Assembly (NCBI GenBank): GCA_965197585.1
Contig: OZ240215.1
Coordinates: 64,001-128,000, forward strand
Length of the DNA stretch: 64,000 nucleotides
Source of the DNA: Dehalococcoidia bacterium
GTDB lineage: Bacteria > Chloroflexota > Dehalococcoidia > Plut-88900
Direction: 5' to 3'
Shown here piece after piece: positions 2,576 to 28,629 of the stretch. Under the pieces are notes generated by a model that ran no database searches, had not been told where the DNA came from, and saw nothing but the letters and a program-made list of their open reading frames with translations. The position numbers and the translations under genes are program-made. Position 1 is the stretch's first letter. Each line of letters begins with the position of its first letter.

Positions 2576-3358
2576 CTAGATCCCCACCCCAAAATACCGC
2601 TCGCTCCTCGCCCGTATGTACCTCTCACTTAAATGATTGAGAGCGCGCCGAGCCAGCGTGAAGTTCTCCGATAGCGTAGCCATCACATCCCCGAGTTCCG
2701 GCACGTCTAACTCCCTGGCGGCGAGACCGTAGAAGGTGCTGCCCTCCCGTTCGTAATCGGCGAGGGTTCGCCGATGGGCGAAGCGCCGACGCCGCGGGCT
2801 TCGGATGGCTTGGTGAGGATATACCCCGGTCATGAACAGCGCTATGTCCGCAATGCGGCGGTAGTAGTCGGGGCGCTCTGCGGGGTCGGCGTGGCGGGCG
2901 GCGTATATCATGTCGTCCATGTCCATGCTGCTGAAGCGGCGTTTTCTCAGCCGACCACGCTCCAGGGAGTAGACCACGGTGGACTGGGTCTTGGAGAAGG
3001 AAGACATCATGTCCGCGAGATAGTCTCGAGGCGGCTCCTCGTCGAGAAGATCGGCCACTTTGGAAGACTCGAATACGGGTATGACCTCGCCCCGATCGCC
3101 TATCTCGTTGATGTAGGGCTGGTTGTCCAGGTCCCGACGCGTCTGGCGTAGCAGTATTGTGAACAACAGCCGGGGCGAAATATGCACGACCGCCTCCTCG
3201 TCGTCCAGCACCCTCTCAACGAGGCGCGCATCCCCGATCATGGCGTCCAGGATGTCGGGCTTATCGCGTACGGATTCAGATACCCTGGCACGGTCTCGCA
3301 TGTCCGGGTAGAGGGTCTCGACGATGAATTTTAGATCGGCGTCTGAGAGTATGAACAT
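2576..3358 (-). CDS. Hypothetical protein
   Basis: 260-aa ORF with natural composition, immediately downstream of tRNA-Gly. Confidence 0.75.
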   Translation of the reverse strand: MFILSDADLKFIVETLYPDMRDRARVSESVRDKPDILDAMIGDARLVERVLDDEEAVVHISPRLLFTILLRQTRRDLDNQPYINEIGDRGEVIPVFESSKVADLLDEEPPRDYLADMMSSFSKTQSTVVYSLERGRLRKRRFSSMDMDDMIYAARHADPAERPDYYRRIADIALFMTGVYPHQAIRSPRRRRFAHRRTLADYEREGSTFYGLAARELDVPELGDVMATLSENFTLARRALNHLSERYIRARSERYFGVGI

Positions 3359-3370
3359 GGGGGTGGGGGG

Positions 3371-3445
3371 TGGAGCGGGCGAAGGGATTCGAACCCTCGA
3401 CCTCCTGCTTGGGAAGCAGACACTCTACCACTGAGTTACGCCCGC
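3371..3445 (-). tRNA. tRNA-Gly (anticodon CCC)
   Basis: Reverse complement GCGGGCGTAACTCAGTGGTAGAGTGTCTGCTTCCCAAGCAGGAGGTCGAGGGTTCGAATCCCTTCGCCCGCTCCA: cloverleaf, TTCGAA T-loop, encoded CCA. Confidence 0.97.
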
Positions 3446-3499
3446 GCCTGACTTAACTTTACGATGATGGGGCGGAAGGCGTCAAATTGGCCTCTGGTA

Positions 3500-4006
3500 C
3501 TACCGCAACCGCCCGATCGCGTAGAACACCCCCACCCCCAGGAACAGCAGCAGATACACGTCCACCGATATCACATACCGAGCAAAAGTCTGCCCCGATA
3601 GGTCATAGAAGAACGCCGCCTGGATAGCCTTACCGACAAAGCTGCTCGCTATCACACTCACTGCGGCGATAACCTGCAGCCCGAGGCCCCGCTTCCTGTT
3701 CGCAACCCTCGAAATCCCCTCCCCTATCGCCAGCCCCACTACTATCGAGGTGATGATGGAGGCAAACGGCACCCCGCGCAGCAGGGCCCACACGACTCCC
3801 CCGGCCAACGCCAACCCGAGCCCCGCGCCCGCGGCCTTAACGTAGAAGAGGGCGCTAACCTCGTAGATAGGGGAACGGCGGACGTTGGCGCACTCCTTGC
3901 ACCGCGCCCCGACAGGCGTGTGGACCAGACACCTGGGGCATATGGGCTTATCGCACTTGCCGCAGGAAAGAAGTGTCTCCGTATTAGGGTGAGTAGCGCA
4001 CTGCAT
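3500..4006 (-). CDS. B-box-like zinc-finger membrane protein
   Basis: CxxH...CxxC...CxxC...CxxC N-terminus plus ~4 TM helices. Confidence 0.75.
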   Translation of the reverse strand: MQCATHPNTETLLSCGKCDKPICPRCLVHTPVGARCKECANVRRSPIYEVSALFYVKAAGAGLGLALAGGVVWALLRGVPFASIITSIVVGLAIGEGISRVANRKRGLGLQVIAAVSVIASSFVGKAIQAAFFYDLSGQTFARYVISVDVYLLLFLGVGVFYAIGRLR

Positions 4007-26032: not shown

Positions 26033-26120
26033 CTGCGCTTGGGCAAGGGCTTTCAGATTGAAAATCTGGGACATTTATGCTAACGTGATGGGTACTGATT
26101 CTACACTAAAGGCGATTAAA

Positions 26121-26306
26121 TTGGCGAAGTGCGAAATATGTAACAAGATTCCCCGCTTCGGCAGGAACGTAAGCCACTCCAAAAGGCACACGCCCCGGAT
26201 GTACAGGCCGAACGTTCACCCCGTGCGGCTGATGATAAATGGCAAGCGGCAGCGGATGAAGGTCTGCACCCGTTGCCTCAGGACCCAGTACAAGCAAGCA
26301 TCTTGA
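26121..26306 (+). CDS. rpmB: 50S ribosomal protein L28 (zinc-binding CxxC/CxxC form)
   Basis: AKCEICNK..FGRNVSHSKRHTPR...PN...VCTRCLR; TTG start; divergent from DAK2 gene as usual. Confidence 0.93.
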   Translation: MAKCEICNKIPRFGRNVSHSKRHTPRMYRPNVHPVRLMINGKRQRMKVCTRCLRTQYKQAS

Positions 26307-27061
26307 CTTTGTCTGCCCTCCTCCGCCGACGCACGGTTGCGCCTGCTGTGGCGTTGTTCTTCTGCGCGCTTGTCGTTGGAGCTGCTTGGGCCTGCGGCGG
26401 ATCAACCGATTCTCCCGACCCCACTGCCACCCAGGCCCCGTCTGCCACCACCGCGCCGGATGCCGACCCTGACCCCACATCCGAGCCCGCTGCCACACCG
26501 ACTGCCTTATCGGTGATCACTCTTGACCCTGATGGCAGGGGATGGAATGTCCTCGGCTCGGCGGACGCGTCAGTCACCGTCCTGGACTATAGTGACTTCC
26601 AATGACCCGGCTGTAGGCGCTGGGCCCTTGGAACGGCCCAGGAGATCAAATCGACCTACGTGGACGACGGCAGGGTCAAGGTGGAATACCGCCATTACGC
26701 CGTCCTGGGTCCCGAATCGCGCCTGATGGCTCAAGGCACCGAGTGTGCGGGTGAGCAGGGTGAATTCTGGAAATATCACGACGCGATATTCCAGGAGCGG
26801 ACCAGGGAGATAGGCGTCCAGGGGCAAATAGCTCGTGCCAATACCATCGGCTTGGACATTCCCAAGTTCACCGCCTGCATGGAAAACGAGACCTATGAGC
26901 ACATTGTCGACGGGGACTTGGCTCAGGCTCGAGAGGATGGCGTAACCACCCAGCCCACCATCTTCATCCTGAGCGGCGACCAGATGACGAAGTTCGTCGG
27001 GGCACGCGCCTTCGACGTGGTTTCCGCAGTCATAGACGAATACCTGGGCTCCGCGTACTAG
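26303..27061 (+). CDS. DsbA/BdbD-like thioredoxin-fold lipoprotein, putative selenoprotein (UPGC; TGA at 26603-26605)
   Basis: AWAC lipobox, PT linker, LGSADASVTVLDYSDFQ-TGA-PGC continues in frame into ECAGEQGEFWKYHDAIF...GVTTQPTIF; downstream hairpin; TTG start overlapping rpmB stop is inferred. Confidence 0.85.
26620..26641 (+). promoter_or_regulatory. Putative SECIS hairpin 1
   Basis: CTGGGCC-CTTGGAAC-GGCCCAG, loop starts 22 nt after TGA. Confidence 0.7.
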
Positions 27062-27099
27062 TGACCCGAGCGCCAATGCTGGGACACGGGTCTTCTCAA

Positions 27100-28629
27100 A
27101 TGTCCATTCTCCCCCGACGCCTGACATTCACCCGACTTGGCATCCTCCTATTTTGTGTAACCGTCCTTGCTATGGTTTCATGGGCCTGCTCGTCGAGCCC
27201 TGAGATAGTTGATCCTACATCTACCGGCGCGCCGGTCCCCACTAACACCCTCGTCCCTCCATCGACTTCAGCTCCCTCCGACGCTCCTCCCACCGACACC
27301 CCTCCACCCGATTCTACGCCGGGCGCACCTCCAACGACCCGGGACTGGAATGTCCTCGGGTCGCCGGACGCCTCCGTGTCCATCGCCGATTTCGGCGACT
27401 TCCTCTGACCCGGTTGCAAGCATTGGGCCCGTGGTGCGGCCCTCGAAGTGAAGAAAGCCTACATCGAGACTGGGTTGGTGAACCTGAACTACTTCCATTT
27501 CCCTCATATCAACGATGATTCTTACTTGGCGGCCCACGCCACCGAGTGTGCGGGAGAACAGGGCTCTTTCTGGCAGTACCATGACACTCTTTACGAAAAA
27601 CAGGGCGAGGGCGGCAGAGGGGTGGAAAGACTCGAAGGGTTCGCCGAAGACCTTGGCCTCGACACGGGACGCTTCTCGGCTTGCATGGAAGCCAGAACCT
27701 ACGACGGCGTTATTCAAAGAGACATAAATCTGGCCCTGCGGAACGAAGTCTCGGTCACCCCCACCATCTTCGTCCTGTCCACCGACCCCAACCAAACTGG
27801 AACAAAATTCGACGGTTCGCCTTCCTTCGAAACCATTTCCGCAGTAATTGATGAGTTGCTGATGACGCAGCAACCGGCCCCTGCCCCAACACCCACCGTA
27901 ACCCTAGTCCCGACATCCACTTCCGCCCCTGCTCCCGTTGCAAGTTCCACGCCTGCTCCGACGCCTACGGCGGCATCTTTGGCGCCATCCCCAACACCAA
28001 TAGTCAGTCCCGTCCCTACACCTGCCCCGACTCCCTCTCCCACCCCCGTCCCAACTGCAGTCCCGACACCCTCTCCAACTCCCAATCCAACCGCCACGTC
28101 TGTGCCGGAACCCGTCGGCAGAGTATGGAATGTTCTAGGTTCCCTGGATGCGCCCGTCACATTGGAGGAATTCAGCGACTTTCAATGAGGCGTTTGCAGG
28201 AATTGGGCCCTTGGACCGGCCCAGGAGATAAAGCGACAATACATAGACCAAGGTCAGGTAAAGCTGGTGCTCCGCCACCGGACCACTTTCGGTCCCGCCT
28301 CGAGAATCATGTCCTTGGGAACGGAGTGCGCCGGTGAGCAAGATAAGTTTTGGGAGTTTCATGACGCCCGAATTCGAAGCGGCTCCGGGAGCGTCCAAGG
28401 CCAGATCAGCTTGGCACAGACTCTGGGTCTGAACGTGCCCCAATTTACCGCTTGCATGGAAGAGCAGAGGTACCAGAAATTCTTGGAAGAAGACCGAGCC
28501 GCCGCTCAAGCCAACGGCATCTTCACTCAGCCCGCCTTCATCATTAGTAGTGGTGGACAGTCAATCAAGCGGATTGGATCGCTGACCGCTGGACAGCTCG
28601 GGCCGATAATCGACGAATTGCTAAACTAG
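27100..28629 (+). CDS. Tandem two-domain DsbA/BdbD-like lipoprotein with two putative selenocysteines (UPGC at 27406-27408, UGVC at 28186-28188)
   Basis: ORFs 27061..27408, 27448..28188 and 28267..28629 share one frame; both TGAs occupy the first Cys position of CxxC; SWAC lipobox; PT linkers; start 27061 or 27100. Confidence 0.85.
27425..27442 (+). promoter_or_regulatory. Putative SECIS hairpin 2
   Basis: GGGCC-CGTGGTGC-GGCCC, loop starts 22 nt after TGA. Confidence 0.65.
28204..28223 (+). promoter_or_regulatory. Putative SECIS hairpin 3
   Basis: TGGGCC-CTTGGACC-GGCCCA, loop starts 22 nt after TGA. Confidence 0.7.

Follow-up and report, generated by a model that had tools for sequence, protein, structure and literature searches.

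Evidence for selenocysteine in three exported BdbD/DsbA-like domains encoded by two genes of a Dehalococcoidia bacterium

Genes and domains at the locus

The window analyzed, a stretch of 64,000 nucleotides (nt) of Dehalococcoidia bacterium contig OZ240215.1 (assembly GCA_965197585.1, positions 64,001-128,000 of the forward strand), contains two neighboring genes interrupted by TGA codons at the active sites of thioredoxin-like domains. Coordinates are given as window positions, and the positions of the motifs and TGAs were checked against the raw sequence. Under genetic code table 11 the stretch 26273-28629 is divided into about five fragments, and reading through TGA joins these into two frames. 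Counted from the signal peptide starts, no in-frame TGA other than the three catalytic ones was found in the two frames, and both terminate in TAG. With high confidence, the three in-frame UGAs are decoded as selenocysteine (Sec, U) and both genes are intact selenoprotein genes with exported BdbD/DsbA-like domains.

Gene 1 (26303-27061, plus strand) codes for a single-domain UxxC protein of 252 amino acids (aa). It starts with TTG at 26303, with an alternative in-frame TTG at 26273, and stops with TAG at 27059-27061. The signal peptide (26303-26395), an RRR stretch followed by a hydrophobic stretch, ends in A-W-A-C, where Cys31, conserved in all orthologs, is the presumed lipidated residue. 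A stalk of about 48 aa rich in proline, threonine and aspartate follows (26396-26539). In the read-through translation the first TGA (26603-26605) lies in SDFQ-U-PGC, and this codon is TGA in all nine genus orthologs. A hairpin resembling a selenocysteine insertion sequence (SECIS) is found at 26620-26641, beginning 17 nt past the U of the UGA, with a stem of 7 base pairs (bp), CUGGGCC/GGCCCAG, and an 8-nt loop (CUUGGAAC).

Gene 2 (27100-28629, plus strand) codes for a two-domain, two-Sec protein of 509 aa, starting with ATG at 27100 (alternatives are GTG at 27061 and ATG at 27076) and stopping with TAG at 28627-28629. Its signal peptide (27100-27189) ends in S-W-A-C with Cys30, and S/A-W-A-C was present in 9/9 orthologs. 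A first stalk of about 49 aa (27190-27336) is rich in proline and threonine (P/T). The second TGA (27406-27408) lies in GDFL-U-PGC and is followed by hairpin 2 (27425-27442; 5-bp stem GGGCC/GGCCC, loop CGUGGUGC). The two domains are separated by a linker of about 80 aa rich in proline, threonine, alanine and serine (27874-28113), the length of which differs among congeners, from about 25 aa (L042) to about 100 aa. The third TGA (28186-28188) lies in SDFQ-U-GVC, with hairpin 3 at 28204-28223 (6-bp stem UGGGCC/GGCCCA, loop CUUGGACC). Both TGAs and both hairpins of gene 2 are conserved in the orthologs.

The assignment to the DsbA/BdbD fold was made in the original prediction and holds by Pfam, by sequence search of the PDB and by fold. 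Pfam Thioredoxin_4 (PF13462, cut-off 23.2 bits) matched gene 1 with 89.8 bits and gene 2 with 161.4 bits in two stretches, and DSBA (PF01323, cut-off 25.6 bits) matched with 32.4 and 52 bits, respectively. The closest solved protein by sequence was Bacillus subtilis BdbD (3eu3), with an E-value of 1.1e-13 in a phmmer search. In that alignment the first TGA falls on the first Cys of the BdbD motif CPSC, and QPT falls on the BdbD TPT, which together with the raw sequence confirms the earlier claim of frames broken only by TGA, each time at the first Cys of CxxC. The cis-proline (cis-Pro) stretches of the three domains are TTQPTI, SVTPTI and FTQPAF. An AlphaFold2 model of gene 1, built from a 20-row alignment, had a mean predicted local distance difference test (pLDDT) score of 83.5. 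The domain, residues 81-250, scored 85-98, with a core above 95, and the N-terminal 80 residues scored 48-65, so that the stalk (residues 31-80) is predicted to be disordered. In the model a strand spans residues 91-97, U is residue 101 and a helix starts at 102; P218 is at least 90% conserved. A Foldseek search with the model returned BdbD first, with a template modeling (TM) score of 0.81 on the target, then Corynebacterium diphtheriae DsbA/TsdA and Wolbachia alpha-DsbA1/2, and lower down ScsC, DsbG and Staphylococcus aureus DsbA. Two further Cys residues, in ECAGEQ and ACME, were both present in 16 rows of alignment A1 and both absent in 4. This co-variation is consistent with a structural disulfide within the helical insert, and such a bond would imply an extracytoplasmic location.

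At the N-terminus of each protein a basic stretch precedes about 20 hydrophobic residues and a Cys (in A-W-A-C-GGS for gene 1 and in S-W-A-C-SSS for gene 2), and the genome encodes lgt (LGT, 169.2 bits) and lspA (Peptidase_A8, 123 bits). Positions -1 and +1 fit the canonical lipobox pattern [LVI][ASTVI][GAS]C, and Ala at -3 is common in the genome, occurring in 31 of 113 lipoprotein-like N-termini of a rough census. Position -2 is I, V or A in the gene 1 orthologs L042, L044, L045 and L046 and in the distant homologs L047-L049. Judged from these sequence features, lipid anchoring to the outer face of the cytoplasmic membrane is probable. The original prediction had described the proteins as exported, lipid-anchored and carried on long P/T stalks. 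Export is supported by the signal peptides and the stalks are plainly present; lipidation is indicated by the Cys together with lgt and lspA, whereas the Trp at -2 is atypical. Export through the twin-arginine translocation (Tat) pathway, suggested by the RRR and PRR stretches, was rejected, as the twin arginines are missing from orthologs L042-L046.

Decoding of the in-frame UGAs

Homologs were searched for in 41 related genomes, and matches were obtained in 22. Both Sec genes were present in all eight congeneric genomes. The catalytic codon is TGA in 27/27 domain copies, counting the window and these eight independently assembled genomes. The orthologs are 62-97% identical on both sides of the TGA, in alignments spanning residues 1-262. 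Three nonsense mutations at the same codon had been called implausible from the window itself, and this conservation bears the judgment out. Nine further TGA copies were found in more distant relatives, giving 36 copies overall; locus L052 (G013:C210), for which the search reported one TGA, did not match the motif pattern and was left out of the 36. Homologs with Cys at the catalytic codon, the search for which had also been proposed, were found as well, and the Sec column of alignment A1 is invariant for C or U. Five congeners carry an unlinked Cys paralog with FGDFQ-C-PAC, the codon being TGC or TGT in 5/5. In a relative with 69% identity (L059, genome G203) the gene 1 ortholog (about nt 2974-3768) has TGC at the catalytic codon and retains the GGGCC-N8-GGCCC hairpin; this relic looks like a recent change from Sec to Cys. 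In a wider sample of the class, a relative was present in 77/201 Dehalococcoidia genomes, and by hand count about 64 of the 150 class-wide matches listed had one TGA, the rest none.

A side observation concerns the true stops: all 18 orthologous Sec genes (L039-L046 and the window) use TAG or TAA as their stop, with TGA absent, which is a hint only, the genes being kin and not independent.

The host genome, assembled as one contig, has a length of 3.43 Mb and 59% G+C and is 92% complete. The machinery for Sec decoding, for which a genome search had been suggested, is complete. Profile searches identified SelA (449.7 bits), the wing domain of SelB (71.9 bits) and SelD (385.4 bits), and a tRNA-Sec of 99 nt with anticodon tca is present. 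Of 2096 open frames with 300 or more codons, 615 (29%) stop at TGA, which gives no sign of a genome-wide reassignment.

Two other genes of this genome contain in-frame TGAs. The selD gene (G000:C1:3357253-3358176, minus strand, locus L006) has one in CAG-U-ASK, with a hairpin about 22 nt downstream, so that the Sec machinery of the organism is itself selenium-dependent. A second DsbA-like gene, apparently cytoplasmic (G000:C1:1420665-1420925, minus strand, locus L016), has its TGA within FYDYL-U-PYV, and downstream of it, at a distance of 16 nt, lies a hairpin.

A conserved hairpin follows each TGA of the window genes, as had been looked for on the strength of the original prediction. The stem GGGCC/GGCCC, extended to 5-7 bp, encloses an 8-nt loop and starts 17-19 nt after each UGA. 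The GGGCC-N8-GGCCC core is present in 27/27 copies, and 153 of 162 stem cells are paired, compared to 22-67% when the partner was slid. The loop is variable, yet UGG is kept in 26 of the 27 copies. Synonymous sites in the hairpins are frozen. Among codons of at least fourfold degeneracy that encode conserved residues, 12/15 at positions +5 to +12 were invariant across nine orthologs, against 13/144 elsewhere and 2/11 at +13 to +30, these orthologs being kin and not independent. The Cys paralogs of the genus lack the hairpin in 5/5 cases. Taken together, these three tests, none of which uses folding energy, support a selected SECIS-like RNA element after each UGA, to which SelB is predicted to bind. 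In a sister lineage, 31 TGA copies have a different hairpin, with an 8-bp stem and a 3-nt loop, at a spacing of 21 nt from the UGA. Pairing in this lineage amounts to 93.5% of the cells, compared to 27-37% with the partner slid, and 3 of the 8 pairs show compensatory changes on both sides, a number matched by 6/500 shuffles. No one consensus hairpin fits the entire family, as the genus and sister-lineage forms share only columns of the 3' arm, and the two forms were counted separately.

Zones with partly frozen synonymous sites were also seen upstream of the TGAs. They comprise 12 codons each (26567-26602, 27370-27405 and 28150-28185), and a hairpin located downstream gives no explanation for them.

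In two DNA runs, coverage extends over the whole stretch. One contig from DNA run X2 (record 18; 26426-27117) reads across the first TGA and differs from the window at two positions, both outside this codon, and none of the 40 differences listed, of 128 in total, falls on a TGA. Read errors, raised earlier as a possible source of the TGAs, are thus not borne out: the independent assemblies keep the codons, and so do the DNA runs as far as differences are listed. Contigs from RNA libraries span the first TGA in X15 (26552-26756; labelled sponge metagenome) and X18 (26567-26700). They cover only parts of gene 1 and leave most of gene 2 uncovered, and many of them end near the TGAs.

Several observations weigh against the Sec interpretation or against parts of it. 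Within the genus, changes in the stems are limited to two G-U wobbles, with zero compensatory pairs, and the case for the window hairpins therefore rests on the frozen synonymous sites and the paralog control. Just upstream of the TGA, 6/15 codons of the same degenerate kind are invariant as well. Folding energies did not differ significantly from those of dinucleotide shuffles (Z = -0.88, +0.41 and -1.30). Compared to synonymous recodings, 1 of 36 regions was at or below 0.05, and the three window regions were at 0.18, 0.59 and 0.61. As the energy tests were null, synonymous-site conservation, the slid-partner control and the Cys-paralog control were used instead. In L059/G203, gene 1 has Cys and gene 2 is a broken 55-residue remnant with two TAG stops, although the genome retains SelA; both Sec and gene 2 are thus dispensable. 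Trp at -2 of the lipobox was found in just 1 of the 113 N-termini of the census. The best curated match of all three domains, NCBIfam NF041057 ('Rcas_1661 family thioredoxin-like (seleno)lipoprotein'), was reached with 138.9, 113.5 and 132.9 bits per domain, below its equivalog cut-off of 190. The RNA-library contigs are a weak hint of expression, since such libraries can hold DNA.

Two other readings of the TGAs were considered. If the TGAs terminated translation, the genes would be pseudogenes, products of sequencing errors or sources of short N-terminal lipopeptides. The frames are indeed broken under table 11, public collections hold fragments only, and TGA stops are frequent in the genome. 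Termination is, however, difficult to combine with the TGA in every one of the 27 copies from nine genomes, followed each time by conserved protein, with the full Sec machinery, with the frozen synonymous sites of the hairpins, and with the X2 contig, in which no listed difference touches the TGA. For practical purposes the conservation pattern refutes it, and it is hardly credible. Alternatively, UGA could be read as another residue, e.g. Cys or Trp, by a near-cognate or misacylated tRNA, resulting in CxxC or WxxC enzymes. Cys does function at this position in the paralogs and in L059, but a dedicated hairpin stands at each UGA and is missing from the Cys paralogs; tRNA-Sec, SelA, SelB and SelD are all present, and the use of TGA as a stop speaks against general reassignment. 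This second reading is very improbable, and decoding as Sec is strongly preferred over both.

Proposed redox role

Neither DsbB (PF02600) nor VKOR (PF07884) had a match in any of 12 genomes of the family, seven of them single-contig and the genome of the window among them. Among the genes neighboring the locus no redox partner was seen. The sole DsbD_TM/CcdA-like gene of the genome (891159-891974) lies directly after lgt on the same strand, the two genes together spanning G000:C1:890238-891974 (plus strand, locus L078), and its product is possibly a conduit of reductant for surface thiol-disulfide lipoproteins. A selenium-based thiol-disulfide system had been predicted from the window. The domains for it are there, but the word system overstates the case, as no partner is encoded nearby and DsbB/VKOR was not found in the genome.

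In the reading favored here, SelB and tRNA-Sec decode each UGA, guided by its own hairpin within the coding sequence 17-19 nt downstream. The products are exported oxidoreductase domains that combine the UxxC active site with a cis-Pro loop and a further Cys pair of structural function. The domains are probably tethered by lipid to the outside of the cytoplasmic membrane and would project from it on flexible stalks rich in P/T, singly in the gene 1 product and as two in series in the gene 2 product. In the proposed mechanism the selenolate would act as both attacking and leaving group in thiol-disulfide exchange. Each active site may cycle between selenol/thiol and an intramolecular selenenylsulfide while disulfides are exchanged with exported proteins. 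Premature termination at the UGAs of gene 2 would yield products of 115 or 375 aa, and the selenium supply could set the mixture of isoforms.

As to the direction of the exchange, an oxidizing or isomerizing role independent of DsbB/VKOR is favored, with a confidence a little short of even, because the nearest relatives are oxidases and no oligomerization domain is present. A mainly reducing role is somewhat less probable but a serious rival. Instead of making disulfides, the domains would then receive electrons through the CcdA-like protein and serve in the repair or protection of exported cysteines, in the manner of DsbG, ScsC or TlpA, or in the detoxification of peroxide or metals at the cell surface. 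Exchange of Cys for Sec lowers the redox potential of thioredoxin-fold proteins, which counts for such a role. DsbB/VKOR in 0/12 family genomes and the single DsbD_TM/CcdA-like gene beside lgt point the same way, as do the presence of ScsC and DsbG among the fold matches and the name 'DsbG-like' given to the curated family in reviews. On the other hand, the best matches in both structure and sequence are oxidases (BdbD, C. diphtheriae DsbA and Wolbachia alpha-DsbA1), the N-terminal oligomerization domain of DsbG, DsbC and ScsC is missing, and the CcdA-like gene is unlinked to the locus. It is also conceivable, but unlikely, that selenium chemistry has wholly replaced the quinone route of DsbB/VKOR. 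A surface selenolate would be oxidized by O2 or H2O2 to selenenic acid, trapped by Cys as a selenenylsulfide and passed on as a disulfide, resulting in a peroxide-driven folding catalyst without a partner. Oxidation of a selenolate to selenenic acid has a precedent in glutathione peroxidase. In that case the expansion from one domain to three and the two-Sec fusion would raise the density of the catalyst at the surface.

Locus history and relation to known systems

The neighboring genes are recG, degV and a fakA-like gene on the minus strand, rpmB on the plus strand, and, beyond the two Sec genes, rpe and argH in converging orientation. The arrangement fakA / rpmB, Sec gene(s) / rpe recurs in 10/10 relatives examined, i.e. 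eight congeners and two other genera of the family. In those two genera the slot holds one single-domain gene with one TGA, which points to an expansion in place from one domain to three within the genus, two of them becoming fused. The fusion in gene 2 is kept in 8/8 congeners. Frames of 517-518 aa with two fused domains and no TGA were found at G100:C1:1010897-1012018 and G167:C58:22611-23732, in another family of the class; judged by their sequences, these are Cys counterparts of the two-Sec architecture. DsbA family proteins of 648 aa occur in Myxococcota, at 25% identity.

Directly upstream of gene 1, rpmB (26088-26306, plus strand) codes for ribosomal protein L28 (Pfam Ribosomal_L28, 71.3 bits) and ends in TGA. 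This stop overlaps the TTG start of gene 1 at 26303 (TTGA), and the overlap suggests that a ribosomal protein gene and a selenoprotein gene may be translationally coupled. Residues encoded 5' of TTG 26303 in the frame of gene 1 are conserved among congeners, but this stretch overlaps the end of rpmB.

The catalytic domains of the two genes, three in number and from an abundant uncultured lineage, are stored as fragments and are thereby missed by annotation and by metaproteomic searches; gene callers routinely split UxxC selenoproteins of this kind. The locus offers a natural series, with one Sec domain in two sister genera, three domains with two fused in the genus, and gene 1 reverted to Cys in one relative. 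It is well suited for asking what selenium buys an extracytoplasmic disulfide catalyst in genomes where DsbB/VKOR was not found, and gene 2 for asking how one message handles two SECIS-guided UGAs.

Of solved structures, BdbD (3eu3/3eu4) and C. diphtheriae DsbA/TsdA (4pwo, 7unn) are the closest. The positions of the active site and of the cis-Pro coincide with those of the window domains, but both proteins have Cys instead of Sec and are only 23-25% identical. BdbD works together with the DsbB-like BdbC. S. aureus DsbA (3bci) and Wolbachia alpha-DsbA1 (3f4r) have the same fold, with TM scores of 0.77 and 0.75, and differ in being single-domain Cys enzymes without a P/T stalk. The S. aureus enzyme, a lipoprotein, functions in the absence of a DsbB. 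The second disulfide of alpha-DsbA1, also apparent from a PDB title (C97A/C146A mutant), presumably matches the co-varying Cys pair of the window domains.

DsbA-like UxxC selenoproteins had been cited in the original prediction as a known family, and this agrees with the best curated match. NF041057 shares with the window domains the UxxC at the same place, a signal peptide with Cys and a thioredoxin-like domain. The whole-protein score was 146.6 bits for gene 1, and 258.8 bits for gene 2 only as the sum of two domains, with the profile matched from position 5 (gene 2) or 32 (gene 1) to 246. Across the 201 Dehalococcoidia genomes sampled, the highest score was 172.8, short of the cut-off. By these scores the window domains are relatives outside the curated equivalog and not strict members. 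In a 2026 review (PMC13188914), NF041057 is listed as a 'DsbG-like protein' with UxxC, and its table has '1' in what is presumably the column of Sec residues, compared to two in gene 2. A literature search for 'Rcas_1661' returned no paper. DsbA-like and DsbG-like UxxC selenoproteins date back to PMC1088965 and PMC1794560. Form 1 of the DsbA-like selenoproteins from the Sargasso Sea (PMC1088965) likewise has the DsbA fold, Sec for the first Cys of CxxC and a SECIS downstream. It is assigned there to COG2761/PF01323, whereas Thioredoxin_4 (PF13462) is the stronger model for the window domains, and the genome of the window also encodes, at another locus, an apparently cytoplasmic DsbA-like selenoprotein whose motif differs. 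BSepDB (PMC13326102) includes Dehalococcoidia metagenome-assembled genomes with 46-49 selenoproteins, and the database or its supplements may already hold the window genes.

In protein database searches a full-length homolog with two Sec residues was not found; the closest proteins with both domains at full length have Cys and are 25-27% identical over about 80% of the query. Of the window genes themselves, public protein collections hold fragments only (P0059 and P0060), in addition to a Cys ortholog, and this reflects miscalling rather than absence. Other Dehalococcoidia have arrays of several TGA-bearing paralogs side by side, e.g. G032, G069, G110, G127, G175 and G190. In these the hairpin has an 8-bp stem and a 3-nt loop, in contrast to the GGGCC-N8-GGCCC form of the window, and in G032 the array is made up of three unfused genes that each encode a signal peptide, whereas two of the window domains are fused in a two-Sec protein. 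Proteins of this kind are already catalogued; the novelty is modest and lies in genomes in which DsbB/VKOR was not found, in the expansion in place and in the two-Sec fusion.

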